Positions 13,416 through 64,000 of a stretch of 64,000 bases of DNA are shown piece by piece. The translations under genes were made by a program, and so were the position numbers. The DNA is taken from NCBI GenBank assembly GCA_964016885.1, contig OZ024756.1, forward strand, positions 26,040,001 to 26,104,000. The letters run 5' to 3'. The notes below the pieces were generated by a model. That model had not been told where the DNA came from and did no database searches. It saw only the letters and a program-made list of their open reading frames with translations. Every line of letters begins with the position of its first letter. Position 1 is the first letter of the stretch. This DNA comes from Eledone cirrhosa (Eukaryota).

Positions 13416-36038
<22,623 letters not shown>

Positions 36039-39331: not shown

Positions 39332-39396
39332 TCAATCATCCCACTCATCATCTAAATTTTCATCATCCTCGCTGTCTTCCTCATCACTTTCACCAT
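39332..39396 (-). CDS. WASL: WASP acidic-domain last exon ([21 protein letters not shown])
   Basis: Arp2/3-binding DDEW motif. Confidence 0.95.
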
Positions 39397-41184
39397 CTGA
39401 AATAGAAACAAGACAAATTATCAACATCATTGGAAAAAGATTAGCAGTCATTATAGCATGGGACAAATGCTTAGAAGTATTTAGTTCCAACTCTGTTTTG
39501 TGTTCAAATCCTGCTGAGGTCCAGAGTTGATAAAATACAAGTTACATATTGGGTTCAATGTAAATTGACTTAACCCTCACCACAAATTGTTGGTCTTATG
39601 TCTAAATTAGAAATCATAATCATCACCACATTATTGTCATTGTCATTTTTATTGATTTTACATCTACTGCATCTAGTAGTGGTAGTGATGGTGCCATAAT
39701 AATTTACACCCAGTACACTTTGTAAAGTGATAGTGATGGTGCCACAATAAAAAACTACTCAGTACATCCAGTAGTGGTAGTGATAGTGCCACAATAAAGT
39801 ATACCCAGTACACTCTGTAAAGTGATAGTGATGGTGCCACAATAAAATACACCCAGTACACTCTGTAAAGTGTTAGTGGTATGGCATGAAGCACTGAGTA
39901 CTATCAAAATGCCATGCAGTGCAATCAAAGCTGGTTCTAATGATTGTGAAACAAATGTTAACCATTGAGCTAGACTGACAGGCGAGAGAGAATAAGAGGA
40001 AAACTATTTACCAGATCCTTGTAAGGTTTTCTTCCTGTTGGCCAGGGCTCTGGACAAAGCACCAACTATTCCTGTCTCCTCAACTTCTGGGGATTGTGAG
40101 CCAGCTTCCACCTGTAAGTGAGAGAGGTAGAAAGGGAAAGAAATATAATGGAACTGAAAGTAGAGAAATATATAGAGAGGGAAAGATAGATAGATAGATA
40201 GATAGAAGGATAGATAGAGAGAAAGGAAGTGAAAGATAGAGAGAAAGGAAGTGAAAGATAGATAGAGAGAAAGGAAGTGAAAGATAGAGAGAAGGAATGA
40301 CTAGTTACCGGCTTCAAGTTCTTCATTCCAACATTGCGGATCTCATTCATGAGGTTACCTCTCTTGTCTACAGGTGCTGGGTTGAGTGGCACACTGTTGG
40401 GGGTGACCTTCTTCAGCTGAGCACCCCGGTGGATCTCGTCCAGTAGGGCCGTCCGGCTAGAACTGGTTGAACTCGGCCTGCTATTACTGCCCCCACCACC
40501 AACACTATCAGTTTCGCTTCGCATAGCTGGGGGGAGTGGAGGCACATTGGGGGATGATGATGATGATGATGACGACCCAACCATGGGTGGAGGAGGAGGC
40601 GGTGGTGGCGGAGGTGGAGGAGGAGGCGGTGGCGGCGGGGGAGCTCCAGGAGCTTTGGGGGGTGGAGGCAGGTTGGAGCGTGCGGGGGGAGGTGGTGGTG
40701 GTGGTGGTGGGGTGTTGACGCTTCGAAAGGCAGGCACTGAACGAGAAGGTGGCACAGGGGCTGGAGTTCTACTTGGAGGCACTGGTGGTGGCAACCCAGC
40801 TGACCTGGCTGGGGTTGGGGGACCTATGTGACGAGGCGGTAGAGCTGCAATAAGAAGACACAATATTACATACATACATATATATATATACATACATATA
40901 GACACACACATATATATATATAGTCACCATTTAACGTCCATTTTTCCACCTTAGCTTGGGTTATATGAGCTGTCCTGTTGTGAGATAAGCCAGGTCAGAT
41001 GACCATGTCTTGCTCATACAGAACTGATTTTGACTTGGTTTCTAAGCTGGATGCTCTTCCTAATGCCAACCATATTTACAGTGTGTGCTGGGTGCTTTTT
41101 CCTGTGGCACCTACACAACCACTTTACAGTGTGGGCTGGGCACCTTTTGTTGTGTCGCCAACATGTATGCATACGCATATATAT

Positions 41185-41215
<31 letters not shown>

Positions 41216-42118
41216 CTATATATATATATATACACACACATACCTATATATATATATATATCATCATTTAACATCCATTTTTTCTGTTGACATTAAATAA
41301 TGAAGCTGATGATGCATATCTCTCTCTCTCTATTATATATATATATATATATATAGATAGAGAGAGAGAGAGAGCAATTGGGTGAGTCAGTAGATTCGTG
41401 GTTTACTGAGGAAGGTACCAATACCAGCATTCTATGCTATAGCAGAGTGTATATATTAAGAACAAAACAAGGTTTCACATTGAAATTTTTATTAAGCTCA
41501 GTTATGAATGTTTCACAGATTGGTGGCTCAAGACCCATATTTGTATTATAGAGCCAACTCCAGTCCCAAACTCCTCATCTGGACCAGTCTAATATGGATT
41601 CTGAGCCACATTCATACCTGAGCCTAACCAATAAAGACCTTATTTTGTTCTTTATCATGGAAAAATGGTTGTTAAAGGGTGATGATGATCATGATATAAC
41701 ACATTTTCACACACACACACACACACACACACATCAAATGTTCCCTTACAGTGTGGTGGTAGTGGAGTCTGTTTCTGGTCCATCTCCTTCTTCACAGCAT
41801 CAATTCCACCATTTTTCTCCACAAAGTCATAGATAAACGACAATGTTTCCTTGTCCACTTCACTGCCTGAAGTTAGACCAATTGTTTCTAAAAGCTTCTT
41901 CATGTGCTCCTCCATCTGGTTTATCTAAAACAGACACAACAATCATGTCATTAGTAGTAGAAGTAGTAGTAGTAGCAGCAGTTGATGGAAAATATAGCTG
42001 GGAACTTGTAATTGTACATATATACATGTGTATGTATATATATATATATGTGTGTATGTATATATATATGTATATATATATGTGTGTATGTATGTATATA
42101 TATATATATATATGTGTG

Positions 42119-42161
<43 letters not shown>

Positions 42162-42599
42162 GTATATATATATACATATACGTATACATATTCGTATATA
42201 TATACATATACGTATACATCATTTTCATCATCATTTCATTTTTACGTCCGCTTTTCCCTGCTTGCAAGGGTGGGACGGGAACTGATTCTGGCTTGATTTC
42301 TACAGCTGGATGCCCTTCCTAACACCAACCTCATTTACAGTGAGTGCTGGGTGCTTTTTTGCCGTGGCACCTCCACGACCACTTTGCAGTGGAATGATAT
42401 ACACATATATATACATATACGTATATATATATACATACATACATATACGTATATACATATACGTATATATATACATACATATATATACATATGTATATAT
42501 ATATATATATATATACATACATTTATGTATATAATTAATAATGGGTAATGTAAAATAATTAAGACAAAAAAATTACCTCAAAATACTTCTTGATTCTTG

Positions 42600-42638
<39 letters not shown>

Positions 42639-45337
42639 ATAGTAATATTAATGAGAGTAAATTTTACTCATTTACTAGATGTATTTCAGCTCAATGCAAT
42701 AATAGGATCAAGCAGAGCCAGTATATAATTACAATGTGCTTATAAATTAAAAGTTAAAAGTTCAAGACATTTAATCACTGACAATTGTTTCTTCTCATAA
42801 CAATATATCACCAACAGCAAGTTATTTTATTTAACAATTTGCTATTAGTTAGCATAAACCACAGGAGACATCAGAGTTTAATTAAAATCCAAAACGATTA
42901 ATGAAATATCAATACAAATCATTCAAGAATAACAGATAACATATATCACTTATCTAATTAAAACATAGGTCAAATAATATGGTGTCAGTTGTATTACAAT
43001 ATTTAAAAGTTATTTGGAAGAGTAGTAACTTTCCAATAATGAATTAGAAGTTACACAGTTTTATCAAAGAACAATCCATCAAATCTAACAGGGTTAAAGT
43101 TAAAAGATATTTACTGCAGACCTAACATTATATCAGGAACCATGGATTTATATATATATATATATATTAATGAAGTTGTTTCAGAGATGTTATACCTACA
43201 ATACTGATTATTAAATAATCAATAATATTTAACTATATGTAAGAAGAATATATTAATATCGAAATAAATAAATATTTACATAAGACATTTACACTTATTT
43301 AAAGAATATTTCATATATGGCAAAGAGATATAAGTGTGTGAAATATTTAACCCTTTAGCATTCACATTACTCTATATATACTATTATATTTTCATGGTAA
43401 ATGCTTTATCACATAATATCTCACATAATATCGAATCTATGAGATGTTGGAAGTATTTATTTTGAGAACAATACCTCAACATCAGTTTGAGTGACCAGTT
43501 ACAGCCAGTTACAACAGAAAAAGGTAGAGAATTCTGGCCGGTTTTGGCCGGTTTGAACATTAAAGAGTTAAGAAAATTAATTCATTATAATGAAATATGA
43601 TTTATTAAGTTTAAACTTAAAGGGGGTAAGATGAGATAAGATAATCTATCATATTGAATAAATTAATATATCTTGTTAATAATGCATCAGTAACTATTAC
43701 AATATATAAATGTGGGAGGCTATCCCTAGATTATTTCAATACAATGTATTTAACATCAAATTAAGAGTTAGTTGAAGTATACAGACATAGTTGAATTTAT
43801 ATCTAAAGTCTGTCTTAAGCCAGAAGGCTTATTAGTCCGGTGATTATCTTAATTTCATGGCGTGAAGTCACTGAGAGAAACACGACTTTCCCCTGGACAG
43901 GATGCCAGTCCATCGCAGGGTTAAACCCCCAGCCATTGCTGGTACTCTTTTTCAGCTGAATTTATATGCTTTTATATTAAATGTCTAACTAATATCTGTT
44001 AATCCTATGAAATTATTAAAATTATGGCACCGAATAGAATGAAACATCCTCAGCAATTATATTTAAGTATTTATTATTATTAAGGTCAAAACGAATAGGT
44101 TAGATAAGATAATATATTAATTCAACAAATGTATCATATAATATATATAAATTATTAATAAGGATTCAGTATAAGGTTAAGCATTAGTTGAAGTAAAAGG
44201 TTGTTAATGGGCATTATTGGATTTGTAATAGTTAAACGATTATAGGTTTTTATGGGGGAAAGTGGAAAAGATTTCTGATTTCTTATTTAGAATTAATAAT
44301 TAGTTGAGATTCAAGGAGACCTAAACTACATATTCTATTGTTAGGTTTATAAGCAGAGGATCTACCTAATATTTCCCAATACAATGGTATATGGTATGTT
44401 CTTAGTTTTTAATTCCCAGATAAAACAAGCTAATGATGTCATACGTTTTAATTTAGGTTTTCTAAAAGAATGAAGATGGGAATTAAATCTTGCTTTGAAA
44501 CTATTTGAGGTAGCTTCTATGCAAAGTTTAGACTGTCGAGAGGTGTTAACTGTGCATATTTAATAATTATATAGTAGGTATAACATCTCTATAACAACTG
44601 AAACATTAAAATATATATATATATATTCACTCCGTATAATTTCATGGTTCCTGATATAATGTTAGGTCTGCAGTAAATATCTTTCAATTTTAACCTTGTT
44701 AAATTTGATGGATTGTTCTTACAAACTATGAATACTGCTTTGATAAAACTGTATAACATCCAATTCATTACTGGAAAGTTACTACTCTTCCAAATAACTT
44801 TTAAATATTGTAATACAACTGACACCATATTATTTGACCTACAATTTAATTAGATAAGTGATATATGTTATCAGCTTTTCTTGAATGATTTGTATTGATA
44901 TTGTATTAATCGTTTTGGATTTTGATTAAACTCCGATGACTCCTATAGTTAATGCTAACTAATAGTAAATTGTTAAATAGAATTTTTTGCTGTCTTTGGT
45001 TTATTACTATGAGAAGAAACAATTGTCAGTGATTAAATGCCTTGAACTTGTAATTTTTGGTTTATAAGCACATTGTAACTATCTATCTATCTATATCTAT
45101 CTATATATATGGATGTACATATATAGATATACAAATGTTTATGTATATACGTAACCATCTATCTATCTATCTATATATATATCTATCTATATATATGGAT
45201 GTACATATATAGATATACAAATGTTTATGTATATATGTAACCATCTATCTATATATATATATATATGGATGTACATATATAGATATACAAATGTTTATGT
45301 ATATACGTAACCATCTATCTATCTATCTATCTATCTA

Positions 45338-45424
<87 letters not shown>

Positions 45425-48276
45425 ATGTACATTTATAGATATACAAATGTTTATGTATATACGTAACCATCTATCTATCTATCTATCTATCTATATATAT
45501 ATATATATGGATGTACATTTATAGATATACAAATGTTTATGTATATACGTAACCATCTATCTATATATATATATGGATGTACATATATAGCTATACAAAT
45601 GTTTATGTATATACGTAACCATCTATCTATCTATCTATATATATCTATATCTATATATATGGATGTACATATATAGCTATACAAATGTTTATGTATATAC
45701 GTAACCATCTATCTATATATATATATGGATGTACATATATAGCTATACAAATGTTTATGTATATACGTAACCATCCATCTATCTATACGCGAATGCAATA
45801 GTAACACTTTGTCACAACCTTATGACTGAGGACAGAATAAGATACATCAGAAAGAAAAAATATAGGGAAACACAAACATCAATTAATTGCATTAAAGCGT
45901 ATTAGAAATATGGTCACAAAGGGGTTAAGCAGATAGGGTACATAACTAATTTTCTCAGATCCATTCGGATTGCACTTACTTTTAGGTCAAGGGTTAAAAT
46001 AGAAGAATGTAGAAAAGGATGTTTAGTAAAGTAGGGTGGGAGTAGTTGATTCCATATAATATTTGAAAGTCAATGAAATACAGTGGTTAGTACATGACAC
46101 CATGACCAATATGGGTTCATATAAAAAACAATATATCAAGCTGGTGTTTGGAACATAAATTAATGAAAGTCCTTACATAAAATTATGATCGAAGGTCCTT
46201 TTTTTCTTAGATAAATATAAACACTTTAAAACAAATAGTTTTGTATCATAAAACCAAGGCTGGTTTCAGGGTTGTTAGTATCAAAAGGGTCAACATTATT
46301 CTACTTTTTGATCATGCTCACATAGTACACACACTGCACAGAGAATGCATATTACAAAGAGTACATATGCAGTATATAGTAGTAGAGTACACACACACAC
46401 ACTATATATATATATATATATATAATTAATTTATAACTCTATAAAGTTAACTGTCTCTAATACGTGAACTTTGAAAAGCCAGAATAAATACCACAAAGTA
46501 TCTCAACCAACACTAACATTTCTGCCAATCCACTGCCATGGGCTGGCTGATAATTTATCACCCTTCAACTTGTCCCCTTATTTCTAAGAAGAATTCCCCT
46601 CCTGATGAAGGAACTTGAATTTTTCCAATATCTTGGAATTCCTGATGATGTACCTTGAGTTTCAGAAACCATGGTTGGGGTATTATATAAGTTAAAGCTG
46701 ACTTTTTTTAGCTGATTTGGTTTAAGTTCAATTTATTATATATATATGTAGGTGAGTAATATTGTAGAACAATAAAACTATGCATATATCAGATAAGTAG
46801 CACTCAACATTTGACAGCGTTCCTGATCAAAAGTCTCTCTCTCTCTTCCTTCTTTCTTTTTTTTCCTCTTCTCTTTCCTTTTTCTCCTCCTTCTTTCCTT
46901 TTCTTCTACTTTCCTATCTTTTTCTTACTCTTATATTTCTGTCATATGCAGACTTTGCACTTTCCTGTTGACAAGTGTTTTTAGGCCTCATATCATGTTA
47001 CCTTATTTTATCTGATGAGAACACAATTTTTGTCCCAGGATGATGATGTTTTCGAAATGCGCATAATAAATGGAACTTTTATGCGCATAATATATGGAAC
47101 TTTTTTAAGCATCTTTTAATTTCTTCTTTTATATATATATATATAGTAATAATAATAAATTTGAAGACTAAAATCCAAAGAGGGCTCGATAAGGATAAAT
47201 ATATATAAGATATATAAGAGCCGTAGAGCAAATATTTATTAAAATAACAGATTAAAGTTTAAGCAAAGAATCGCTGCTTTTACCCTTAACGGGATCTTCT
47301 GAAACTAAAAAGTCAATCTGTGAACGCAGAAGTAAATATTTAAAAAAACGTTGCAACCGAAGGAAGAAGACAATACTTTGGTTCGTGGAAACAACTTTAA
47401 TCTGTTATTTTAATATATATATAGATAGATAGATAGATAGAACCAGCTTGTATTAATTTAATTCAATCATTCCTTCAGTTATAACCCACATTTGTGTTGC
47501 TTTCGATTGTAACAATTTTCCTGTCCCATATCAGTGTGTAGATATTCCTTCTTTTTATTTTTTTGCCCAACGCCTGTTGTTTTTTTCATTCCGAAATAGC
47601 TATCCATAGATACTATTAATGCACTGGTGGTGAACAGTCATGTCTTATAAAGCATCTCAATCAACTATAATGATCCCAAGAAGTCAGCCAATGTGTGGTC
47701 CATGTGCTTGTCTCCTCTGAGTTTTCTATTTCCTATATTTCACCCATGTGTTTTTTTAATGATATATATATATATATATATATATAAACGATGATGATGA
47801 TATATATCTATATATATTGTAAATAGTTAGTGCCTGAGCTCAGCTGTTGGACTAACTATTTACAATATATGCACTCTACTTTCCCAAGTATTGAGTACTT
47901 AGCTGAACGTGGTTTTACTAGTTTAAACTGGTAACTCCCAATTTATCTACATAGAAACAGTATGTATTATATCTTGTTCCATTTCTCTTAGACTTGAAGA
48001 CTATGGCAGTTCTTGAATCATTGGTAATTCCAATAGTGGTTCTGCCCCATACAAAACGATGGTAGGGAGATCTTATATAAGCGAAGTTAAACAAAAAAAT
48101 GTTTCTGTCTATTTTGTTTATAGAGTAATTAGAGTTTTTCTCATTTAATTTTAATATATAATATTGCTTCTTTGAGAGATCTCTTTCATTGAGATGGTTG
48201 GGTATTAGTGACTGATTAACCTTTAATTAATATATGGCCTCAGCCGGATGGCTGAAACAGGTAAAAGAGTAAAAGA

Positions 48277-48320
<44 letters not shown>

Positions 48321-51300
48321 TATGCACATTTTTTTATATTATACAACATAGTAGCAAGAATGATTGGAAAGTGAAATCAAGGCAAAAAAAGGGAGGGGTG
48401 GATCTGTTGAGAATTTTAGGTGATGGAAGGAAATGATGGATTACAAGTCTGTTGACTTTAATATGTTATAGCAAGGGAATGATATAATAAAGAATTTAAC
48501 CCTTTTACTCTAATATATATACTATTGTATTTTCAGGGTAAACACTTTATCTCACATAATATCGAATCTACGAGATGTTGATATTATTTATTTTGAGACC
48601 AATACCTTATCATAAGTATGAGCAACTGATTACAGCCGGTTTGAACAGAAAGAAGTGAGAGAATTCTGGCCGGTTTAAATGTTAAAGGTTTAAACTCAAC
48701 ATTTAGCAATAAACTCTGTTGAACTTGATAATACAGTAAGCAAATGGTTACGTGGAAAACAGTGATACCACAATAGGGTAGTACAGTGGTTCCTAAAAGA
48801 GCACACAGTACCCCTAAGGAACCTACAGAAGTAGTAGTAGTGTTACTTCTGGTGTCCATCAGCTAAGTTCAAAATTTCAAGTACTTTGTTACAAACCTAA
48901 TATACTAGAATTTTTTTCCATACGCTGGAGACCCAAGATGACTTGGGATGAGGTGATAAAAGCCGACCTTACCCAACTACACCTCTCAAAGTCAATGACA
49001 CACGACCGTGACTTCTGGCGTCACGCAGTAATACAGGGTACCCGACCTCCCATGGGTACATGCTGAAGCATATAAACAATATGCCCCCACTCCCCCCACC
49101 GCAAGGTGGTCGTGGAGGTGCCACGGCAAAAAAGGACCCAGCCCACACTGTAAAGTGGACGTGTAGGCGCCACGAAAAAGCACCAAGCACTCACTGTAAA
49201 TGAGGTTGGTGTTAGGAAAGGCATCCAGCTGTAGAAATCAAGCCAGATCAGTTCCTGTATGAGCAAGGCATGGTCAGCCGACCAGACACTGCCCACAACA
49301 GGACAACCCGTCTAACCCATGCTAGCGTGGAAGAACGGACGTAAAACGGTGATGATGATGACGCTGATGTGTATGTGCATATGAATATATAAACGTGTAA
49401 ACATAGACACGCTTAGAAAAATACGTACACACAGACATACATTCCCATAAATTGATGGAGGCAGTAGATGTAAAGAGAGAGTAGTATGAGGTAGTTAAAC
49501 TACTTCTCTCTTTTTACGTGTTGTGACAGAATCTCAGAAATTTATAGATAGATACACACTATTAGGGATCTAGTTCTTCTCTAAATATAAACGTTTCTAT
49601 CTTTTGATTGTTATTCTCACAGTTGTAAGAACAAAATATTTTACTTCTTACATGATATTTCACCTATGCGACCGACTCATATATTTCATTTCATTTTTCA
49701 TTTCATTTTACGTCCACTTTTTCCCTGCCTGCAAGGGTGGGACGGGAACTGATTCTGGCTTGATTTCTACAGCTGGATGCCCTTCCTAACACCAACCTCA
49801 TTTACAGTGAGTGCTGGGTGCTTTTTTGCCATGGCACCTTCACGACCACTTTGCAGTGGAATGATAGGGAACTCAGTCCCTATCATCTCATTTCCACAGC
49901 TGAGTAAACTGGAGCAATGTGAAATAAAGTGTCTTGCTCAAGGAAACAACACATCACCCGGTCTGAGAATTGAACTCACAACCTTCCGATTGCAAGCCCA
50001 ATGCTCTAACCACTAAGCCATGTGCCTCCATTGTGTGTGTATATTATATATATATATATGTGTGTATATATATATTTATATATATATATATATATATTTG
50101 TGTATATATATATAAAAAAAAACCCAAAAACAAACAAAATATAGCTGAACCAAGAAGATCAATTTAAAGTTAAACACACCAATAATAATAATAATAACAA
50201 CAACAACAATATACTAGGCTACATGTATATGTAGTGAAGAGTATAGGGTGAGAGTGTGACATAGAGACACATCAAGTGTCAGTTTTGGTTCTGAGCAAAG
50301 GTGAAACAGTTGAATTATATCTGAAGTAGTTTTAAACTACAAACACAACAACAACAACTACCTACAACAACAACTACTATTAAATCAGTAACAACAACAA
50401 CAATGGCAACACTAAAATCAAACAGCAAAGACTTTTTTAAAAATCAAATCAAAACTAGCAAACATTAGAGTATATTTAATGTAGTTAGTCCACACTCAGT
50501 CCTTTATTCATCAATTAGTCAATACTTTAGTCCCCTAAGGATTAAATATTAATACTTTGCTCCCTTAATTTTTAAATATTAATTTAGTCCCCTAATGGAG
50601 TTTGTTAATAATTTAATCCCCCAATCATGTATAGTTAGACAATAATTTAGTTCCCTGATCATGCCTTAATCCTTTAAAACTGAATTAAAAAAAAACACAT
50701 TTTGCCTAGCTACTAGATTTGTGATACAGTAAAATGTTAGAGTTTTCTATTAAATTATCATTATGGGCACCATGCTTTGCAGCAAAGAGTTACGGCCCTT
50801 TATCGTATGAGTTCAAATCCCGTCGAGGTTAACTTTGCCTTTCATCCTTACGGGTTCGATAAAATAAAGTACCAGTAATGCACTGGGTAATTGCTGGCCT
50901 TGTGCCAAAAGTAGAAACAATTATTTCATTTATTGATTTTGTTTCATAGTTAAGGCTTTTTAATCCTTTTGATACCAACCAATTCCCAAAATTGCTTCTG
51001 CTTCAATGGAACAAAACCATCCATTTTAAATAGTTCCTAATTAAATTAAAATCTTCCAACATAATTTCATTTAAGAATCATGTTATGTTACAAATACTGT
51101 CTTAATAATGAAATAATTTTAGTAAATCCCTTCTTCAATTTCTTCACTAATTAATTCAAATACAGTGTATTTTATTAGAAATATCCTTCCATCAACACAA
51201 GTAAATGAACTCTTTCTTTGCCTCACACATTATCCCCCTCCCTTAAACATTCTTCTCTCTCTTTTCTTCCTCACACCGCTACTATTATCTCTCCCATTAA

Positions 51301-52913
51301 AACTCTTTTGCCCTTCCTCCATCTCTGTCTGATATTATAGAGAAAAATAAATAGAAAATCAATAAAACAACTTCACAGACAACATGCTGTGTGCAAACAG
51401 GGTACCAATGTATGTATGTGTGTGTGTGTGTGTGTGTGTGGAAACAAGGGAGAAACAAGGGCAAAGAGGTGGGGATTAGTAAAACTGGCAGAGTTGTTAA
51501 AAGAAAGTTGAAACTTACCGATGGGGGGAGGAAGTCCAATAAAGTGGAGAGCATGAAGATTTGAGGATGACAAAAGAGAGAAATAGCAGAGAATATGTTG
51601 ACAGTGTGATCATGTCAAAATGTGAAAAAAAAAAAAAAAGCAGAATGTTGACAATGTAACTATCAACTGTGTAAAAAATAATAGAGAATGTGTTGATACT
51701 GTGGACATGTCAACTGTGTCAGAAGTAGCAGAGAGTATGTTGACAGTGTGATCATGTCAAAATGTGAAAAAAAAACAAAACAAAAAAAACAGAATGTTGA
51801 CAATGTAACCATAACCATGTCAACTGCATCAAGTAGAAGAGAGTATGTTGACAGTGTGATTATGTCAAAATGTGAAAAAGAAATAGCAGACTGTTGACAA
51901 TGTGACCGTGTTAACTGTGTAAAAAATAATAGAGAATATGTTGATACTGTGGACATGTCAACTGTGTCAGCACTAGCAGAGAGTATGTTGACAGTGTAAT
52001 TATGTCAATAATGTCAGAAATAGCAGGGAGTATGCTGATAATGTCAATATGCCACACATCAAATAGTCAACAAAAAACATTTATTCCTGTTTGTGACAGA
52101 ACATGGTTACATTCTAAGGATCTCAGAGCAACACCAGTTACAAAGCCTATGGAAACTTTTCTGTTAGGTTACATTACCACTGGAGTACTGTGACATTTTC
52201 AGTTTGTTTTAATCAGAGTAGGTCATTGTAGGAGAAACAATACGTGGAAGTATGTTTAAATATCCAATTTATAAGACCATTATTATTCTAAAGAAGAATG
52301 TTTATATACTTATATATGTATATATAACATTTAATATAGAAATGGCTTCAATAGGACTAGAACTGTTTCATTCAAAAGAAATCATCAGGAAAGTACTTCA
52401 CTTACTGTGGTTACCACCGATGGAACCTGGGTCTCATATATATATCCAGGGAGTGTCATAACTACAACAGAGATCCGATGAGCTTTTGATTCCAGAGTCG
52501 ATACAGATCGAACCTTGAGCTGATCAATAGTGAAACGCGCATCACCAATCAATAAACATAATGAAGGCATAACAAATCGTCCTTGTATTATTATATTTAT
52601 AGAACCATCTCAAATAAGCACTTTAAATTAAAGAACTTCACTAGTGTATCCCTAGAGGCAAACGATTTTTGTCAAGAAATATAAATTCTTAGGGCTTAAC
52701 AAATTCTTTTATCCCCTAACTGCAGTTTCACAAGTTAAAATAATAAAATCAACCATCTCAATTAATTAAGATGGCTAATTATTGCAAGAAATTACTTGAT
52801 CATCAGAGAGGAAATTTCTGTTCCTAAAATTAAGAGGGATAAGATATATTCACCTGTGAGTTATATTCTAAGTGATATTATTTATTGAGATGTAATGTAT
52901 ATTACTGACTAAA

Positions 52914-52946
<33 letters not shown>

Positions 52947-53553
52947 GTATATTTTAAATTTCATATACCTAACATGTATGCACAACCTTAGGTTTCAGGG
53001 TCCAATAATGGCCACCACTCTATAGCGGAGGAACTGTTTTAAAACTGGCTTCTCATTGGGCAAAGGTGCCCAATGAGAGGCTAGTTTTAAAATGGATCCT
53101 CCACTATACAGTGGCGGCCATAACTGGACTCCAAAACATAAGGTTGTGCATACATGTTAGGTGTATGAAATTTTAAATATATTAAATAACCTCTCTTGCA
53201 ATAGATTGAGCATTGTTTTCCTCTGCCTTATATTTATGGACATCCTGCATACATATATGTGTGTATATAATATATATATATTAGAAATATAAGCTTTCAC
53301 TGTATTTTTGACTAAAGAAATTTTTAGCCTGATAGTGGGGTTTAGAACCCTCAGAGAAATGGAAAAAGATGAGTATTGACGTACATGTACTCATCTTTTT
53401 CCATTCCTCTGAGGGTTCTAAACCCCACTATCAGGCTAAAAATTTCTTTAGTAAAAAATATGGTGAAAGCTTATATTTCTAATTTCAAACTCGCTCACTG
53501 TTTCAAAACATACTTACATATATATATATATGTAAGTATATATATATATGTAA

Positions 53554-53596
<43 letters not shown>

Positions 53597-56500
53597 TACA
53601 CATATATATATGTTGTTCTACTTTGTATTGTTGCTTGAAAATACAAATTCGGTGGAGAAAGTTTGTTAAATAAATAAATAAACTTAAACTAGGAAAGAGG
53701 AGAAGATGAGTGTCTACTTACGTCTACTGTTTTACATTCAGGGTCCCAGCCTAAATGTTTAATATGCCTGATGAGAAAACAGAGAGAAGCAAAGAGACAA
53801 TGATAAAATGAAAGCCATATATATACAATGTAGGGCTATATTTTACACATACACAACTTCCTTCCTTATCCTTGTCCTTTCTATAACAGAATCTGAAATA
53901 ACTAGTTGTTTGAAGATCAACGAAGGTTAAAAAAAGAAAAGAGTGGATCATCAGATCATACCAAGAAAACAATGTTTCTATTGGTCTTTCCATTGTTGAT
54001 ACTATCTGTCAGTCACAACTCCTGACAGAAGAAAGCATGATTTGAACTCAGAACACACAGAGTCGGGTCAGATTAGATCAGGTAATTCAAGGCATCTCAG
54101 CCAACTCTTCAACAACCATCTCCATCCTACCAACCAATGCATTATTTACCAAGTTAGCAAATAAAAACAAAATGAAATATTTCTCTACATACATGCTCAG
54201 TATTCTAATCTATTAATATAACCACTAACTATTATAACCAGCAATATCTGAAAGAAATGGAGCTGTAATGAACCAAAGTTTGTCTCAGAATCAGTAGAGC
54301 ATCAAACAAAATGCCATATAGCGTTCATTTCAGCTTTCCTGTGTTTTAAGTTCAAACCCTGTTCAAGTCAACTTTGCCTTTCATACTTCCAGGGTTCATA
54401 CAATAAAGTACCAGATGTAACTGACTTCCCTTCCTCACCAAAATTGTAGGCCTTGTGCCTAAATCAGAAAGCATTATTATTATTATTATTATTATTACTA
54501 GAAGGGTAGTGGATTGACAAAATTGTTAGAATGGTGGACAAAATGCTTTCCACCATTTGTTTCTGCTCAAATTCCGCTAATGTCAACTTTGCCTTTCATT
54601 CTTAATACCAGTAATGCAGTAGGGTCGATTTAATCGACCTTCCGCTCCCCTAAAATTGCTGGCCTTGTGCCTAAATTAGAAACCCTTATTATTATTATTA
54701 TTATTATTGATATTTTTATCATCACCAGGATCTGCTTTATTCTTCTGTGGTTGTTCCCAACAAAAATATGTGAACTCCCACCCCACTCACCGTGCCAATG
54801 TTAGCCCTCAATATAAAGAACTTTGGTAACAATCCAAGAAAATTAGCTTCAAGAACTCACCGGAAATTTGTAGGTTGGCCAATGTCTTGTTTTGTTAAAC
54901 GTGATTTCTTTTTTTCTTTCTTTATTGTAGACTTCTTGAGTGTACCAAGTTGTGTAGGACCTGGAAAACATGGACAAATATACTCTATATACATATATTT
55001 ATTATTAGTACAGATTAAAAGTTTAACCCTTTAATGTTCAAACTGGCCAAAACCGGCCAGAATTCTCTACCTCTTTCTGTTGAAACTGGCTGTAACTGGT
55101 CGCTGAAACTGATGTTAAGGTATTGTTCTCAAAATAAATACTTTCAAAATCTCATAGATTCGATATTATGTGAGATAATTATGCGAGCTAAAGCCTTCAC
55201 CATGAAAATATAATAGTATATATAGAGTAATGTGAATACTAAAGGGTTAAGCAAATAATTTCTGCTTTCACCACCCAGAGTGGGATCATCATATTGCTAC
55301 TATATATCATCGTTTTTACATCTGCTTTTCCAAGCTTGCACAGGTTCTTCTTAGCATGGCATCTCTCCACACGTTGCAATCTTTTGTCATCTCCTCTGAA
55401 TCTCAGTAATTTGAGGTCAGCTCTCACAACCTCTACCCAAGTCTTTCTTGGGCTACCTCTACTGCAGCTTCCTTCCACCGACATTTTCTGTCACTTCTTC
55501 ACCCAACGATCATTGCCCATGCGCATCACGTACAAACCAACGCAGTCTTCTTTCCTGCACACCACCTCGGATTCCTCTTTAACCCAGCTTCTCACTCAAC
55601 TCGTCCATGTTCTGCCTTTCTCTCACATTTACATTGCACATCCAACGGAGCATGGGTGCTTCATTTCTCTCCCATTTTTGGCTTGGTTTCTACGGTTGGT
55701 TGCCCTTTCTATACTTCCTCAAAAGGTCTCTTACACACACTCCCTCAAAAGCTTTGTTACAACCAGTCGAAAAATAGTATTTTACCAACACTTTCCTTAA
55801 GGGCTCACTCACTAACACCTTCCTTAAAGGGTTTCTCACCAACACCTCACTGGAAAAAGTCCCTTACCCCTTCCTCCAAATAAATACCTCTTACCTCCAG
55901 TATCCATGGGTTTCTGTATAGGTGCTTTATTTGAAGTCATGTTGTTCTGAGTTATGTTAGTTTGCTGGTTACGTTGAGAATTCTGTTGGTTTCTCCGTTC
56001 TGTCAGGATAAATAACAAAAGACAACTACTATATGTTGTACTGGCTACAAACCATTATACACAGAGCAAGAGATAATTTTGTTTATATCAATAAGTACCA
56101 GTTACTTGAAATACGAGTATCCTTTAGTGGCTGATCACACAGACAGACATACACATACATATATAAATATAGATATGGCCTGGAGAAGGATGGGCTCTGC
56201 CCAAGAAACACTGTATGTCAGTATGTTGACCCTACAACTCTATCAGGAGTTATAAGACCATATTATATATATTTGAAAACATGGGAATCTCAAATGCAGA
56301 AAATAACTGTAACAACAGTTGATTGCTATAAATAGTAGCTTAAAAAATTGAATAAAATATCCCTAGAGACAGAAAAAAGTTACAAGCACTGCTATGGCTG
56401 TTGGCCACCCACTCAAGGGGTATTTTATTTGATTTTCTAAGCTATGTTTTATAGTGATTGCCTGTTGTTACAGATATTTTCTACATTTGGGATTCCCAAA

Positions 56501-57015
56501 TTTTCAAATTTCAAAACACCTAAGTACTTTGATAATTCATAATATCACTGTTGTTTTCATCATCATCATCATTGTTTAATGCCTGCTTGCCCTGCTAGCT
56601 AGGGTTGAACATGTGGACACAGACCATGTGCATTTTAATGGGAAGTTGTCCTGTGACACAACTGAAGAGTCCTTTCAACCCTTTTGGCATGGTTTCTACA
56701 GTGGGGTGCCCTTCTTATCACCAACCACCTTACAGATAGTATGGCAGCAGATGGTATTATCCTGTAATCAAGGGCAAAAGATGGTATCATTCTGAAACCA
56801 AGACAACAGATGGTATCCTGTAACCAAAGCAACAGTTGACAGACACCTTTCCCATTTATATTTCAACCAGCAACTCACCTTCCTTCTTCATCTGTCTTTC
56901 CAATATTTTACTGTTAACTGTCTGTATAAACCTGGCAGCCTCATCTTCATTAGCAAAGTTGATGCCTGCCTGGCTCGCCTGCAAATATATAACACATATA
57001 TACATATATTCATAT

Positions 57016-57055
<40 letters not shown>

Positions 57056-57600
57056 TATATATATATATGTGCAACCGATAGAAAGTATTAGCAATTGGAA
57101 AGACCAACGGAAACATTATTTCCTCAGTCCAATTTGACGAAAAGTCGATATATATATATATATATATATGTGTAAAATGTAAACAGAAATGACAACACGT
57201 TCGGTACAGTATATGGAAGGGATATATTAGGTTAACTCTTGATATAGCAGGAAGAGGGTCTTAACGTTTCGGACTCTAGTCCTTCAGCAGAAGAGAGAAT
57301 GAGAAATAAGATAGATTGAGGGGACGGGCAGGTTGGAATTGGAAAAAATGTCTTTAGATAAAAATAACAGGTCCATTCATGTTGACATCTCTTGCAAAAC
57401 TGACTAACTACATGCTTTTTTCACTGTTTTCTTTCTTTCTTTACACATACACACACACAACTACCCATCAATCATCCAATCTTCAGACCTACCCACACTA
57501 CTGCCAAACTTACCTCAGCTTCAAATGTGTGGAAGAATTTTCGAGGGTTCTTATATTTCAGCTGGTTGTACATCTCCTGTTCCCATAGTAACTGTTGCCG
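39332..57600 (-). CDS. WASL: WASP / N-WASP family actin nucleation-promoting factor (canonical 5' exons not found in the window)
   Basis: exons 57514-57600, 56879-56978, 55895-55999, 54861-54960, 53722-53767, 41750-41924, 40309-40844, 40012-40111, 39332-39396; GT-AG and in phase; LLWEQEMY and [10 protein letters not shown] (WH1), [18 protein letters not shown] (CRIB), poly-Pro, 2x WH2, IVGALSRAL (C), DDEWDD* (A). Confidence 0.93.
39675..39890. repeat. degenerate ~57-bp tandem repeat (GTGATGGTGCCACAATAAA..CCCAGTACACTCTGTAAA)
   Basis: 3-4 units; SINE-tail-like sequence. Confidence 0.7.
40012..40111 (-). CDS. WASL: WASP C (central) domain exon
   Basis: [33 protein letters not shown]. Confidence 0.93.
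40309..40844 (-). CDS. WASL: WASP poly-proline plus tandem WH2 exon
   Basis: [18 protein letters not shown] and [19 protein letters not shown]. Confidence 0.95.
41750..41924 (-). CDS. WASL: WASP GBD C-terminal exon
   Basis: [25 protein letters not shown], including the regulatory Tyr of IYDF. Confidence 0.93.
42730..45078. repeat. diverged ~490-bp inverted repeat (42730-43215 / 44560-45078)
   Basis: tacaatgtgcttataaa..ttcttctcata and gatatttactgcagacctaacattatatcaggaaccatg are present on both strands. Confidence 0.85.
44280..44570 (-). pseudogene. decayed GIY-YIG endonuclease of a Penelope-like retroelement
   Basis: [50 protein letters not shown]..(frameshift)[27 protein letters not shown] matches the YIGxT..FKxR..H..SF..TxL..IWxLK..CxLCLxE pattern. 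Confidence 0.7.
45085..45785. repeat. ~60-80-bp minisatellite with variable (TATC)n(TA)n spacer
   Basis: constant part ATGGATGTACATATATAGATATACAAATGTTTATGTATATACGTAACCATC, about 9 copies. Confidence 0.95.
46594..46680 (+). ncRNA. hammerhead-like motif with long stem II
   Basis: CCCC(TC) CTGATGA A GGAACTTGA...TTGAGTTTC A GAA ACCATGGT T GGGG; palindromic stem III. Confidence 0.5.
47007..47070 (+). ncRNA. minimal type I hammerhead ribozyme motif
   Basis: TTTAT CTGATGA GAACA...TGTTTTC GAA ATGCGCAT A ATAAA: stem I TTTAT/ATAAA, palindromic stem III, AUA cleavage triplet. Confidence 0.65.
49695..50029 (-). mobile_element. SINE family A copy
   Basis: reverse complement of 8-355. Confidence 0.88.
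51590..52035. repeat. complex higher-order tandem repeat built on TGTTGACA/TGTCAA motifs
   Basis: recurring GAGTATGTTGACAGTGTGATCATGTCAAAATGTGAAAA. Confidence 0.8.
52950..53180. mobile_element. fold-back element with ~110-bp arms next to (TA)n
   Basis: arms centred on TGGGCA AAGG TGCCCA; decayed GAAAC CTAAG GT motif. Confidence 0.7.
53280..53483. mobile_element. fold-back element with ~95-bp arms between (TA)n tracts
   Basis: ATTAGAAATATAAGCTTTCAC...GAGTA / TACTC...GTGAAAGCTTATATTTCTAAT. Confidence 0.75.
53722..53767 (-). CDS. WASL: WASP CRIB exon, second half
   Basis: [15 protein letters not shown]. Confidence 0.9.
54861..54960 (-). CDS. WASL: WASP basic region / CRIB first-half exon
   Basis: [25 protein letters not shown]. 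Confidence 0.93.
55300..55660 (-). mobile_element. RTE LINE 3' fragment
   Basis: [26 protein letters not shown]; similar + strand relic at 58540-58810. Confidence 0.75.
55895..55999 (-). CDS. WASL: WASP linker exon (Q/N-rich)
   Basis: phase 1/1 exon [34 protein letters not shown] with GT-AG sites. Confidence 0.8.
56879..56978 (-). CDS. WASL: WASP WH1 C-terminal exon
   Basis: [19 protein letters not shown]. Confidence 0.94.
57259..57294 (-). ncRNA. hammerhead motif with an A6>C core substitution
   Basis: TCTT CTGCTGA A GGAC TAGA GTCC GAA ACGT T AAGA. Confidence 0.5.
57514..57600 (-). CDS. WASL: WASP WH1 middle exon
   Basis: [29 protein letters not shown]. Confidence 0.94.
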
Positions 57601-58894
57601 CTGAAGAAAGACAAAAAGTTGGTGACAAAGTGGAAACATTTATTTGAGAATAAAACATACAAAATTAAAAAACAAAAAAAGATATTTTAATTATAAGTTA
57701 GTCAACAAAGAATGAACTAAACTCATGAACTTTAACACTTTTGGGACTGTATTTCTAATGAAATACACTATTTCAATTAAATAATAAAGAACTTTGAAGG
57801 GTTTAATAAAACTATTAGCGTATATACGTGGATATAAGCCAACCCCAACCCCATTTTATGCCAGAGAAATGAGCAAAATTCCAACCCTGTTTACAAGCAG
57901 AGGCAGCTAATCAATACATGTTTAGATGACCTGGTTTTGAAATTCTCATGAGTATGAAATATATTTGTGAAGTTTTGATATTTAATGTCTTTTTTTTTTC
58001 TATGTGTGCATAGGTTGGACAGGTCCTTTCTAGCACAGCCTGCCTCCACTTGTAGCATTTCTTTATTGTCTCTTCTCTGAGGTAACTAATCTAATTTGTT
58101 TCAGAACACCTTATTTGTTACCACATCAAGTAAAAAAAGGAAACTTAGGGATAATTCTTAACCGATCAATACTGGAAGCCCTAAACACAAAGAATACCTT
58201 TAAAAACTAATAAAACACAAAGTATCACTAAACTTTATATATAAAATCTTTATCAAAATGAAAAGGTGAAACTTTATATTTAAAATTTTTATCGAAATTC
58301 TTCCATCTTAATTCGGTGTAAGAACATTTTTATGTTCCAAACACCTGCTTAATAATGAGAACATTAGTTATAGTACTTAATTCCTCCAAATTCTTCAATT
58401 TCAAAATTGCTTGAAAATCATAGGTAGTGTTTTTCATTAGAAATATGGTAACAAAAGGATTAAATTTAAAATATCAGGTAAAATTATGTAGATATTAAAT
58501 GATGATCATGATTCATGGACAAATTGAGAAAAAAACTGGGTATGATAGGAATCAGATGTAATGTGTAAGAGAGAAGAATGTGTTGTTATGGACATGTGAT
58601 ATGTATCAATAATGGTTGCTAGATGAAAAAGTGTCAGGTGATGCGAGTGGAAGGAAGCTGCAGTAGAGGAAGTCGGAGAAAGACATAGGCAGAGATGGTT
58701 AGAGCTGATCTCAAAATACAGAGGAGATGAGAAAGGAATGCTACAAGTGGAGGCAGGCTATGGTGGAAAGGACCTGTCCAACCTATGCAGACATGGAAAA
58801 AAACAGACATAATATTGACTCCTTAAAATATTGAAACTGAACAAAAATAAATGTATGTACAGTATAGTATCTAAGAAAAACACTACCAGCTTAC

Positions 58895-60448
58895 CTCATC
58901 CATGGCATACACCTGTGCTAAGGACTTTAAATAATTGATATATTCTGCATATGGTGTATAATCAAATTGTTCATCTGACTGATACAGTTGTTCATTGTCT
59001 AGATGGGAACTCTCTGTTCTGTAATAGCTACCATCACCACTGCTATTGTCAGTACAGTTGTTGTTGTGATAAGAGCTCTCTGTTCTGTAATAGCTACCAT
59101 CACCACCACCACTATTGTCAGTACAGTTTTGATAAATGTAAATATTATCTTCAAACATCTCCACAGATTCTGGATTTGTTTCAAAACCATTGTATTTATA
59201 AGCTGTGTTGTTATTCTGGTGGTGTTGGTGTTGGCCATTGGAGTGCTCAGGAGCAAAACCTTGGTACTGGTTGCTATATCCTTGAGATTTTTCATTAAAC
59301 TCACATATTTTCCTGGATTCTTGGTGAGTACCAGTCATTTTATAGGGGTTATATTTATTATGTGAAGGGCTCGCTAGGTAGATAGCTCTGCTCCACATTT
59401 CACGTGGATTAAAATTCCTGTCAGACATTTGTGTAGTAGTAGTTGCTAGGTGGTGGTGGTTTGACTGACTGAGAGGGCTGGCAGAGTCATAGCAACCATT
59501 TTTAGTGTATGATGATGATGATGATGATGACACATCACCTTTATTATAGTAACTATGAGCATAATCAAGGGCTCTTGACCATTTGTCCTGGGAGGAGTCT
59601 GTGTTGAAGCTATTTCTGTCTTTGGGGTCATACTGGTCCACCTGAGAGATGTGATTACAGTTGTTATCACAATACAACATATCTTTGTTATGAGAGTGGC
59701 CTGATTTCATCAGGTGAGGCTGAAAGTTGACATACTCCAAGGAAGAAACAGGGTGAGAAGGATTAGTTACATGGATAGAATCCACTTTCTGATAACCAGT
59801 GGACATCTTATCTTGATAATACTGACCATTCTGTGAATGTTTGGCCGTATATGTCTGGGTATGAGAGGGTTGAGAGTCATACGGTACTTGGAGGTCATTG
59901 GACCCTCGGCTGTAAGAAGTCTGGTTAAAAGAATGCTGGACATTAAAGTCCTCTGATCTGGTCAACTGGTGGCCATCATGTGTGTATGGAGTGGCAGTGT
60001 CATAGGAGGAGGACTGACGGTTAGAAGACTGCTGGAAGTCTACTTGTTGAATGGAACTATCTTCACTTTGACCGTAAGAATACACAGCTTTAGAAGGTTG
60101 GTAATTGGAAGTAGTATGGTGCCCATTATATTGTTGGTAGTCTGCCGTTGTAGATGTATGGTGGCTGTTGTGTGTCTCTTGAAGCTGGTTGTTATAACTT
60201 GAATGACAAGAAGTGGAGTGGTGTCCATTATATTGGTGATAGTCTGCAGTTGTAGATGCACTGTGGTCATTGTGTGTCTGTTGTAGATGTGATGATAATG
60301 ATGATGATGATAATGACGATGTCAACTGGTCCCCACTGTAATTTAAGTAGTCCTCCGTCGAAGGTGTCTCACACAACCCATACGGGTCATATTTTCTGTT
60401 ACCATTAAATAGTTTATATGCATAGCGGTAAGATTTTTTCACAGCCAT
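58895..60448 (-). CDS. large low-complexity (S/Q/H/N/Y/D-rich) exon, 518 codons, probable alternative first coding exon of WASP
   Basis: uninterrupted 1.55-kb ORF from ATG 60448; donor GAG|GTAAGC at 58895 in phase 0, matching the phase-0 acceptor at 57600. Confidence 0.7.
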
Positions 60449-60824
60449 TTAGGCAGAGAAGAATACAAAGAAGATATGGGAGAGATATATCAGTTACTCG
60501 TTTTCTCTGTTTTCATTATTATAGTTTTTACAGTTAAACAATCCACCTACATTGCCTATTGACTTAGTAATGAGACGGCTGCAGTTATTTCGAGAGGGGA
60601 TTAACAGCACGTGATGGTTATGGCGAAGGAGGGGGTGATGGAGGCTTTGATGGAGGAAGAGAATAATTTTGTTGCAGTACAGATTAGGATTATCAACTGA
60701 TCAATAAAAAAAGGATTATTACATCAAGCTAGGTCCTCAGTCTTCACTGGATTAATGGAATCTGAGTAAAATAGCTAGCAGCATGGTGGTGGCCATAGGT
60801 TTTACTGCATTTACTGCAGGTGAC

Positions 60825-61840
60825 CATGAATCACATGCTGACCATATATTTCACTAATGGCCATGCTAAATCACATGCTTGCTATATATTTCACTAATTA
60901 CCACACTAAATTACGTGCTGACCAATATATTTCACTAATTACCACACTAAATCACGTGCTTGCTATATATTTCACTAATTACCACACTAAATTACATGCT
61001 GGCTATATATTTCACTAATTACCACACTAAATTACGTGCTGACCAATATATTTCACTAATTACCACACTAAATCACGTGCTTGCTATATATTTCACTAAT
61101 TACCACACTAAATTACATGCTGGCTATATATTTCACTAATGACCACACTAAATTACGTGCTGACCAATATATTTCACTAATGACCACACTAAATCACATG
61201 CTGACCATATATTTCACTCTAACCACACTAAATCACGTGCTGACCATATATTTCACTCTAACCACACTAAATCATGTGGTGACCAATATATTTCACTCTA
61301 ACCACACTAAATCACGTGCTGACCATATATTTCACTAATGACCACACTAAATCACGTGCTGACCAATATATTTCACTCTGACCACACTAAATCATGTGCT
61401 GACCAATATATTTCACTCTGACCACACTAAATCACGTGCTGACCAATATATTTCACTCTGACCACACTAAATCATGTGGTGACCAATATATTTCACTCTG
61501 ACTACACTAAATCATGTGCTGACCAATATATTTCACTCTGACCACACTAAATCATGTGCTGACCATATATTTCACTCTGACCACACTAAATCATGTGCTG
61601 ACCAATATATTTCACTCTGACCACACTAAATCATGTGCTGACCATATATTTCACTCTGACCACACTAAATCATGTGCTGACCAATATATTTCACTCTGAC
61701 CACACTAAATCACGTGCTGACCAATATATTTCACTCTGACCACACTAAATCATGTGCTGACCAATATATTTCACTCTGACCACACTAAATCATGTGCTGA
61801 CCAATATATTTCACTCTGACCACACTAAATCATGTGGTGA
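60825..61840. repeat. 39/40-bp minisatellite (about 25 copies), many units with CACGTG/CATGTG
   Basis: unit CCACACTAAATCAYGTGCTGACC(A)ATATATTTCACTCTGA. Confidence 0.95.
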
Positions 61841-62109
61841 TATATTCAGATATGCAACGGATTCTTCTGGTAAATGAATAGTTATAAAACAATTATAAAG
61901 TAGGAAAGACTACTCTTCGTGGGTCTGAGAAAAGTACCAGATTGGTGACTTGTGTGAATTAGACCATCAAAACTGAAATATGGTGAGAGGTAACAAAAAG
62001 AATCATACTGCATCGTCCCTCATGTGAGTTAATAAAGGATGTAATCAGGCCTTAGGTAGAGGCCTGTTCGAAAAATATATTGCAGTCTTCATTTCATGCA
62101 GTAAAAACT

Positions 62110-62275
62110 GGTGATGGGCTGGCGACATGACCCGAGAGGCATGGGATAGATGCACAAAGATTGCATAAGAGGATTCAGAAGGGAGCAAATCTTGACAATT
62201 GGAACCTGGAACATTACAACCCTTATAGGTAAGAAACAGGAACTATATGCATCACATGTCCGTATGAACGCAGTC
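62110..62275 (+). mobile_element. LINE 5' fragment (start of AP endonuclease)
   Basis: LTIGTWNITTLIGKKQEL matches the APE motif I GTWNV.TL. Confidence 0.65.
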
Positions 62276-63514
62276 TTCTCTCTTGCACAACACTTTGGAT
62301 ATATCATCATCATCATTATTTAACATCTGCTTTCCTGGCTAGCAAGGATTGGACTGGTCTACATAGACCAAATCAGTACTGAAGCAGAGCCACTGATGTC
62401 CCAGACAAACTGAGGGGGTCTGCATCCCACTTACATATGGTCATTATCGTGTGCAGAGAAGAAGTTGTGTCTTTTGACACAAACTGATGGATCCTCCTAA
62501 ACCCTTGTTTGGCAAGCTTTCTATGGCTGGATGCCCTTCCTAACACCATCTACGTGGGTGCTTTTATTGTGTAGATCACCAGCACTGGAGAGGGTGTCAT
62601 GTACTTGACATAATTAAAGGATCCTCCCAACCCCTTTGTTTGGCAAACTTTCTCTGATTGGATGCCCTTCCTATCACCAACCACTATACAGCATATACTG
62701 GGTGCATTTATTGTGTAGATCCCCGACACTAGAGAAACAGTTGTGTCTCAGACACAGCTAAAGGGTCCACTCAATCCTATTAGGCATGATTTCTACAGTG
62801 AGGTGCCCTTCCCGTTGCCAGCCACCCATATGGAGTGTACCAGGTACATTTTCATTGCCCCATCAATAGAGAGGAGGGCAATAGGGGAGGGAGATAGGTA
62901 TTAAGTTATATGTTTGTGAGGATGGGTCGGGGTGGCTGATTAGTGTATGGGGAGTGGGGATGTAGTGGTGTGTGATGTGTGTATGTGGGTGGGGGTGGGG
63001 GTTGCTTGATAGAGAGGGGGTAAAGGGTAGAGAGAGTAGCTACACACACATAAAATTAGAAGTTTGTTAATAAAGATGGCCTGTAACTGGTTATTACACT
63101 TTTCACAACCACAGGGTTTCTGTTACAGCCCGACAGTGTGGCACCTTGGACAAATGTCAACTATAGACTTGGGTTAACCTATGTTTTGTGAGTGGAATTT
63201 AGTAGACGGAAACTGCAGAAGCTCATTGCATATATATGTATATATGTGCATGTTTGTATGTGTGTGAGAGTGAGATGGCGTTTATGTCATGTAGCTAAGT
63301 GGTTCAACCAAAAGGGGTTGATGAAATAAGTACCAGACATGAAAAAATGAAGTATTGGTGTCTATATGATTGACTAACAACACTTGAAGGTGGTACTCCA
63401 GCATGGTCACTGTCTCATGAAAATATGAGGTTTGAGGGATGGTAAAAATTAGCTAATTATCTCTCATAATTAAGATTTAACCTAAGTATATTTAAATAAC
63501 AACAGCTTAACACA

Positions 63515-63755
63515 CAGTGTTGTTGTTGGTGTAGTGGTGATGGTGGTAGTGTTGTTGTTGGTATAATGGTGACGGTAGTGTTGTTGTTGGTGTAGTGGTG
63601 GTAGTGTTGATGTAATGGTGGTGGTGCAGTTGTGGTAGTGTAGTGGTGATGATGCAGTGGTTGTGGTGCAGTTGTAGTGGGTGCTGTTGATGGTGGTGGT
63701 GCTGGGTGTTCTTGTTGGTGTAGTGGTGTTAGTGTTGGTGGTGATAATGATGTGT
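63515..63755. repeat. GT-rich degenerate trinucleotide (GGT/GTT/GTA) tract
   Basis: directly visible. Confidence 0.85.
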
Positions 63756-64000
63756 ATGTGTGGCGGGAGTTGACATTGACTTATTAAAAAAAACCCATCA
63801 ATGGTTCAAAGACTAACAACAACTAACAAACAAAAGACAGAAAAATCTACTGAAACTGTAAAGGTTAAAAAACTAGAAGGTCACCCATGTTGAAAGTTTT
63901 ATGTAATTATTGGCTTAAACCAGTCATTCAGTCCATACTGCACTGCACCTCACCTTCCGTAGGTATCTGTCTTAATGCTATGGAATTTTAGTCCCATCAT

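Follow-up and report, generated by a model that had tools for sequence, protein, structure and literature searches.

A conserved open reading frame in the WH1-splitting intron of WASP in the octopus Eledone cirrhosa is a likely alternative first exon

The second form of WASP in Caenorhabditis elegans, WSP-1B, carries a long unique N-terminus, and a neural WASP without exon 2 was reportedly described by Le Page et al. in 2004, the title calling it an active form. The C. elegans forms WSP-1A and WSP-1B are both predicted from one locus, wsp-1, with two transcription starts (PMC11463545); tagged WSP-1B was undetectable in gastrulating embryos (PMC11463545), and the wsp-1 allele gm324 was said to affect one isoform only (PMC10798621). 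Kollmar et al. (PMC3298513) regarded the exon-2-less WASP as probably artefactual; their 2012 study also defined the WAWH proteins, that is, WASP without WH1. A Drosophila WASP isoform without exon 1 was reported as well (PMC7927664). Here we analysed a stretch of 64,000 nucleotides of Eledone cirrhosa contig OZ024756.1 (the window; G000:C17:26040001-26104000), in which an open reading frame (ORF) of 518 codons, hereafter ALT, was observed within the WASP intron interrupting WH1. It is likely that ALT is a conserved alternative first exon, which would give an in-frame WASP isoform. For WASP-family genes at large, almost no splice variants and a need for an intact WH1 were reported (PMC3298513).

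ORF analysis of the window bore out the original prediction that ALT (60448-58895, minus strand, 1554 nt) is stop-free in stop-dense DNA. The remaining five frames over the same stretch contained 14–63 stops each, and the longest ORF in 500 base shuffles averaged 89 amino acids, with a maximum of 195. An in-frame TAA immediately 5' of the ATG at 60448 closes the upstream frame. At the other end, the donor GAG/GTAAGC (58895) agreed with the consensus at 7 of 9 positions, within the range of the 10 canonical WASP donors (6–9 of 9). Both this donor and the next acceptor (57600) are in phase 0, and ALT together with the shared WASP exons gives 2868 nt, or 955 amino acids, with zero internal stops, exactly as predicted. 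ALT has its own conserved start codon, a closed upstream frame and a conserved in-phase donor, as a first exon should. The arrangement of the locus was as follows.

C17:26120501-26120611, beyond the window end, minus strand: canonical coding exon 1, about 20 kb upstream of ALT
G000:C17:26110093-26110233, beyond the window end, minus strand: canonical coding exon 2, N-terminal half of WH1 including the EVH1 Trp, phase-0 donor
60449..64000, minus strand: upstream part of the 12,492-nt WH1-splitting intron, continuing past the window end to exon 2
60449..60696, minus strand: candidate 5' untranslated region, with an acceptor-like site (60696), a start-stop ATG (60552), an 8-codon upstream ORF (60516) and a pyrimidine tract
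58895..60448, minus strand: ALT, putative alternative first coding exon, 518 codons, rich in Tyr, Ser, Asn, Gln and His, phase-0 GT donor
57601..58894, minus strand: intron between ALT and the shared exon, 1294 nt, GC 31% versus 40.5% in ALT
57514..57600, minus strand: first of the shared WASP exons, where the C-half of WH1 begins (Pfam WH1 positions 59-85 of 111), phase-0 acceptor
39332..56978, minus strand: overall span of eight further shared exons (56978-56879, 55999-55895, 54960-54861, 53767-53722, 41924-41750, 40844-40309, 40111-40012 and 39396-39332), encoding the WH1 end, basic region, CRIB/GBD, proline-rich region, WH2, C and A

The canonical 5' WH1 exons had been expected further upstream, and they were indeed located beyond the window end, about 20 and 9.6 kb upstream. 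Exon 2 precedes the ALT ATG by 9,644 nt, which places ALT inside a 12,492-nt phase-0 intron that splits WH1 mid-domain. When the 3.0-Gb genome was searched with a WH1 profile, 6 of 13 candidates matched, and they fell at three loci; the only WASP-like ones were the two on C17 (31/45 and 25/30 identical to P0004, of the Sepia WASL cluster), and those elsewhere were at most 11/37 identical to P0004. The gene encodes a complete WH1/EVH1 (exons 1 and 2, 57600 and 56978). The canonical model, in which exons 1 and 2 join 57600 and 56978 in frame, was open over 1566 nt (521 amino acids) and 61.7% identical to P0004, which itself matched N-WASP at E 3e-112; the canonical exon junction was also seen in the cuttlefish cluster P0004-P0009. 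The basic region, CRIB/GBD, proline-rich region and WH2-C-A were all present, as judged by tblastn of P0004, Pfam WH2 and the PBD in the ortholog. The WASP core of the window was 84.8% identical to Octopus bimaculoides, and for the WH1 C-half the identity was 85.5% with O. bimaculoides against 72.6% with a cuttlefish-cluster protein. The other EVH1 loci (G000:C14:42191510-42207484 and C11:45364513-45371942; L001-L003, L005), which look Ena/VASP-like and Homer-like, also appear to be interrupted by an intron close to profile position 59, as in WASP.

In a word search, 2 of 3807 candidates were homologs of ALT, and the same two were returned by a full HMMER search over 1.84 billion cluster representatives. 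One (P0002) is the O. bimaculoides RefSeq protein XP_014771603.1, a partial prediction with a 434-amino-acid version of the exon; the other (P0003) is a Logan protein whose frame runs on past the donor. ALT and P0002 were identical at 233 of 425 aligned positions (54.8%), with a score of 1008 against a maximum of 174 in 200 shuffles; the corresponding count for P0003 was 226/412, and P0002 and P0003 were 81% identical to each other. The likeness spans the full length across 20 gaps (P0002, in frame) and 23 gaps (P0003), and the frame stays open. All three sequences have the start Met in common, as well as their final 13 residues before the donor; the length ranges over 430–520 codons across octopuses. 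The extra length of ALT is partly due to internal duplications spaced by 102, 66 and 69 nt, all multiples of 3.

60108..60289, minus strand: internal duplication, spacing 102 nt, frame-preserving, mostly gapped in both homologs
58995..59128, minus strand: duplications within ALT at spacings of 66 and 69 nt, both keeping the frame

The frame conservation that had been proposed as a check was therefore found in related species: start, donor and open frame are kept in two homologs across 20–23 gaps. By these comparisons ALT is a protein-coding exon under protein-level constraint. It could instead be imagined as an unexpressed relic or a frame derived from a repeat or transposon, in keeping with its low complexity and with the family searches, in which Pfam gave 0 families at E 0.1, the best PDB match had E 0.27 and the Atlas gave no usable match. 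Yet the conserved middle 100 amino acids matched the genome only once among 122 candidates, and a relic would hardly stay open across so many gaps between species; we regard this explanation as extremely improbable. With P0002 as query, the Atlas returned nothing beyond WH1/PBD leads, under 0.9, and 0 of 91 pattern matches were confirmed in a metagenome scan. No homolog from decapodiforms or any other group was found, although relatives within 50% identity are hidden under the representatives and unannotated exons are invisible to such searches. ALT is probably octopod-specific, and because of these hidden relatives and exons the restriction is provisional.

The junction to WASP was present in the O. 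bimaculoides prediction: XP_014771603.1 joins the ALT ortholog to the WH1 half and CRIB at a junction identical to 58895/57600. ALT is thus already present, unrecognised, in one automated annotation. The RefSeq name of this model, 'putative uncharacterized protein DDB_G0282499, partial', is a low-complexity Dictyostelium-type identifier and misleading; the model ends in the proline-rich exon, and the canonical O. bimaculoides WASP may be unannotated. Within the range covered by our literature search, which leaves most subscription journals outside, nothing was returned on the ALT exon, cephalopod WASP or XP_014771603.1.

The read-through in P0003 suggests another possibility, namely that ALT is a stand-alone intronless nested gene of 521 amino acids that reads through to its own stop, with polyadenylation within the intron; the join to WASP would then be a gene-finder artefact. 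The frame of ALT does close 3 codons past the donor, the 1294-nt intron contains five A[AT]TAAA hexamers (unremarkable at 31% GC), and the junction is known from a predicted protein rather than a transcript. However, the stop is not conserved, lying 3 codons past the donor in ALT and 122 in P0003, and the similarity breaks off precisely at a conserved GT donor whose phase agrees with that of the next acceptor. The 122-codon stretch of P0003 is 52% F/L/I/V/C and intron-like, and both ALT and P0003 read V-S past the donor, as GTnAGy would give. A nested gene is accordingly considered quite unlikely, and splicing of ALT to the WASP exon at 57600 appears quite probable from the sequence comparison.

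Because the donors of exon 2 and ALT are both in phase 0, exon 2 could also be joined to a phase-0 acceptor within the ORF. Such a cassette would insert 190–370 disordered residues into the turn that links the two WH1 halves and leave WH1 complete but for a giant loop. Six phase-0 AG sites exist in the ORF (60013, 59920, 59854, 59734, 59587 and 59464), preceded by 13–17 pyrimidines in 20; but they have only 4–9 T, compared with 9–14 at 10 true acceptors, and the Met and amino acids 5-32, located upstream of every one of these sites, belong to the best conserved stretches. We consider a cassette very unlikely. As for the predicted alternative-promoter isoform, the constrained exon in the WH1-splitting intron and the same WASP junction in XP_014771603.1 argue for the isoform; ALT would be driven by an internal promoter or else by a non-coding 5' exon of its own. 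The acceptor-like site 60696 (14 of 20 pyrimidines, 12 T; minus strand) may allow such a 5' exon, leaving the protein product unchanged, and the pyrimidine tract directly 5' of the ATG contains no AG. A 40-bp minisatellite (60829-61840, 25.3 copies, 92% matches) ends some 380 bp upstream of the ATG of ALT, in the zone in which one would look for an internal promoter.

Under the favoured reading of ALT as an alternative first exon, in-frame splicing to 57600 would yield a predicted 955-residue isoform beside the 521-residue canonical form. The gene and downstream exons would be the same as in metazoan WASP/N-WASP, but exons 1-2 (Pfam WH1 up to about position 57) would be replaced by 518 unrelated residues. 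The loss of an intact WH1 was foreseen correctly, since the Pfam WH1 match in P0002 covers profile positions 54-110 of 111 only, and the equivalents of the EVH1 Trp W64, Y54 and V50/V51 are encoded in exon 2. When the WIP contacts available from PMC7407642 were transferred through the WASp alignment, the equivalents of the pre-sandwich helix 31-37, V50/V51, Y54 and W64 fell in exons 1-2 and were lost, whereas E100, F114 and T116 were kept. Because these equivalents are absent from the ALT form, WIP binding is expected to be lost; without exons 1-2, WH1 would be unable to fold or to bind WIP/verprolin. With the basic region, GBD, proline-rich region and VCA intact, the predicted protein would remain a Cdc42-gated Arp2/3 activator.

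Alternatively, the transcript could be spliced as proposed while its product is dominant-negative or short-lived, the orphan half-WH1 misfolding and the WIP protection being gone, with selection keeping the N-terminal region rather than actin nucleation. WIP chaperones WASp against degradation and mutations of buried WH1 residues cause disease (PMC7407642), and Kollmar et al. doubted that a half-domain folds (PMC3298513). Against this, WH1-less WAWH proteins exist in amoebae, an apusozoan and a lizard (PMC3298513), the exon-2-less WASP is termed active in its title, and use of the downstream part would more readily account for a conserved in-frame donor. We hold an unstable or interfering product to be highly improbable.

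The ALT-encoded region contains 15.8% S, 9.8% Y, 9.1% N, 8.3% Q, 7.3% T, 6.8% D and 6.8% H, and by charge-hydropathy it plots on the disordered side of the boundary (0.354 < 0.429). Conserved blocks were defined by at least 11 of 15 invariant positions in three sequences.

60353..60436, minus strand: conserved block 1, amino acids 5-32, 20 of 28 positions invariant in three sequences, first copy of KY[DN]PY
59546..59590, minus strand: first copy of the WS[RK]A helix motif, about amino acids 287-301, under the 11/15 threshold, helix in the low-confidence model
59330..59440, minus strand: conserved block 2, amino acids 337-373, 28 of 37 invariant, second copy of WS[RK]A followed by the second copy of KY[DN]PY
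58895..58948, minus strand: conserved block 3, amino acids 501-518, 14 of 18 invariant, predicted helix right before the donor

WS[RK]A and KY[DN]PY were each observed in two copies in all three ALT sequences. In a low-confidence AlphaFold single-sequence model of P0002 (mean pLDDT 40), helices were predicted at both WS[RK]A motifs and at the tail. The WH1 of the canonical control P0004 was also not folded by the same procedure; hence the low pLDDT supports disorder only weakly, and the P0002 model is uninformative on the half-WH1. KY[DN]PY may also fit a PY-type nuclear import signal. Aromatic residues were conserved at 47 of 57 positions compared with 186 of 368 for other residues (p 6e-6); with flat scoring the counts were 46/56 and 195/368, and outside the conserved blocks they were 31/39 and 126/289.

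The region had been called prion-like. Disorder by charge-hydropathy and conserved aromatics, spaced about every 7–8 residues, agree with this description in part; the Q+N content is moderate, with a maximum of 21, 19 and 24 per 80 residues in the three sequences and 16–18% overall (S+G+Q+N+Y, 44–48%). The threshold for a prion domain is about 30 per 80 residues. Compared with aromatic-sticker domains of the FUS/hnRNPA1 type, ALT is similarly polar, disordered and Tyr-rich, but has low Gly (4.6%), contains His (7–9%) and acidic residues (11–13%) and is modest in Q+N; evenness of the aromatic spacing was not significant in ALT (shuffle fractions 0.05–0.12). The SH2 docking that had been suggested found no backing in motifs of Nck type: Y[DE]x[PV] was absent from two of the three ALT homologs and present once, unconserved, in the third, and YxxP was absent from all three. 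Nor did the proposed resemblance of the junction to canonical WASP (strand 4) hold up, with BLOSUM62 scores of -11 to -16 in the flush register and +4 to +8 when shifted by one residue. Mimicry of WH1 strand 1 by the ALT tail, placed by MAFFT, was also tried and rejected: its score of 20 was reached by 16% of 2000 shuffles and by 30% of 478 other 20-mers and was weaker against P0004, and at the DNA level the match was reached by 43% of shuffles.

As a mechanism, the disordered ALT N-terminus would replace WIP as the targeting module, binding of a specific partner would fall to the WS[RK]A helix and the KY[DN]PY motif, each present twice, and the conserved aromatics would add weak multivalent self-association. 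Given splicing, we lean towards an N-terminal targeting role for the region; true condensate formation by the isoform is doubtful. A bolder version, in which octopods evolved ALT de novo in the intron and so made WASP a WIP-independent, self-condensing Arp2/3 activator that builds actin in an octopus-specific cell type or compartment, its own stickers and motifs replacing the adaptor network by which WASP is clustered in other animals, seems unlikely.

This architecture has precedents in two-promoter C. elegans wsp-1, in WAWH and in the disputed exon-2-less WASP. The likeness to wsp-1 lies in one WASP locus with two start-derived isoforms, as proposed for octopus; no C. elegans sequence resembled ALT in the HMMER search of the 1.84 billion representatives. 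The exon-2-less WASP likewise loses N-terminal WH1 strands, but by exon skipping and with no replacement region. WAWH proteins share GBD-PRD-VCA without a working WH1, type II having a serine-rich N-terminus (PMC3298513), but they are separate genes (amoebae, apusozoan, Anolis) with no WH1 sequence at all. The ALT form, as an isoform of the canonical locus that keeps half of WH1, falls outside that definition.

Several points weigh against the proposed isoform. The folding of a half-WH1 was doubted by Kollmar et al. (2012), whose survey has almost no splice forms in the WASP family and one spliced WASP, that of Aplysia (PMC3298513). The evidence for the ALT-WASP junction consists of a predicted protein and sequence comparison, and XP_014771603.1, as a partial prediction without an isoform label, may be an ab initio join. 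Because P0002 and P0003 are 81% identical, the conservation is close to one pairwise comparison, and ALT diverges much faster than the WASP core (55% versus 85% identity). The excess of conserved aromatics may be inflated by aligner anchoring. Finally, none of 393 candidates was a protein of <373 amino acids carrying the junction region, a search of limited sensitivity because no canonical octopus WASP was returned either.

If the favoured reading is correct, the locus would provide a second WASP form with different targeting, in which half of WH1 is exchanged for a long disordered region. It would offer a natural way to ask if an Arp2/3 activator can be targeted by a multivalent region of its own in place of WIP, and a clean case of new coding sequence born within an intron of an ancient gene. 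The finding also flags the RefSeq name of the O. bimaculoides WASP locus model as misleading.

Other features were observed around the gene. An exon at 23604-24119 on the plus strand, opposite to WASP, encodes a CBS domain (Pfam E 1.4e-5) and is presumably part of an IMP dehydrogenase gene. A LINE-like reverse-transcriptase frame of 376 codons (3094-4221, minus strand; RVT_1 E 5e-16) has similar pieces at 37688-38056 and others in L007. A 310-codon frame (L009:8079-9008, minus strand), situated some 12 kb upstream of WASP exon 1, has an EF-hand-like start and contains long acidic tandem repeats; in Pfam it matched only Yae1_N, below the cut-off.

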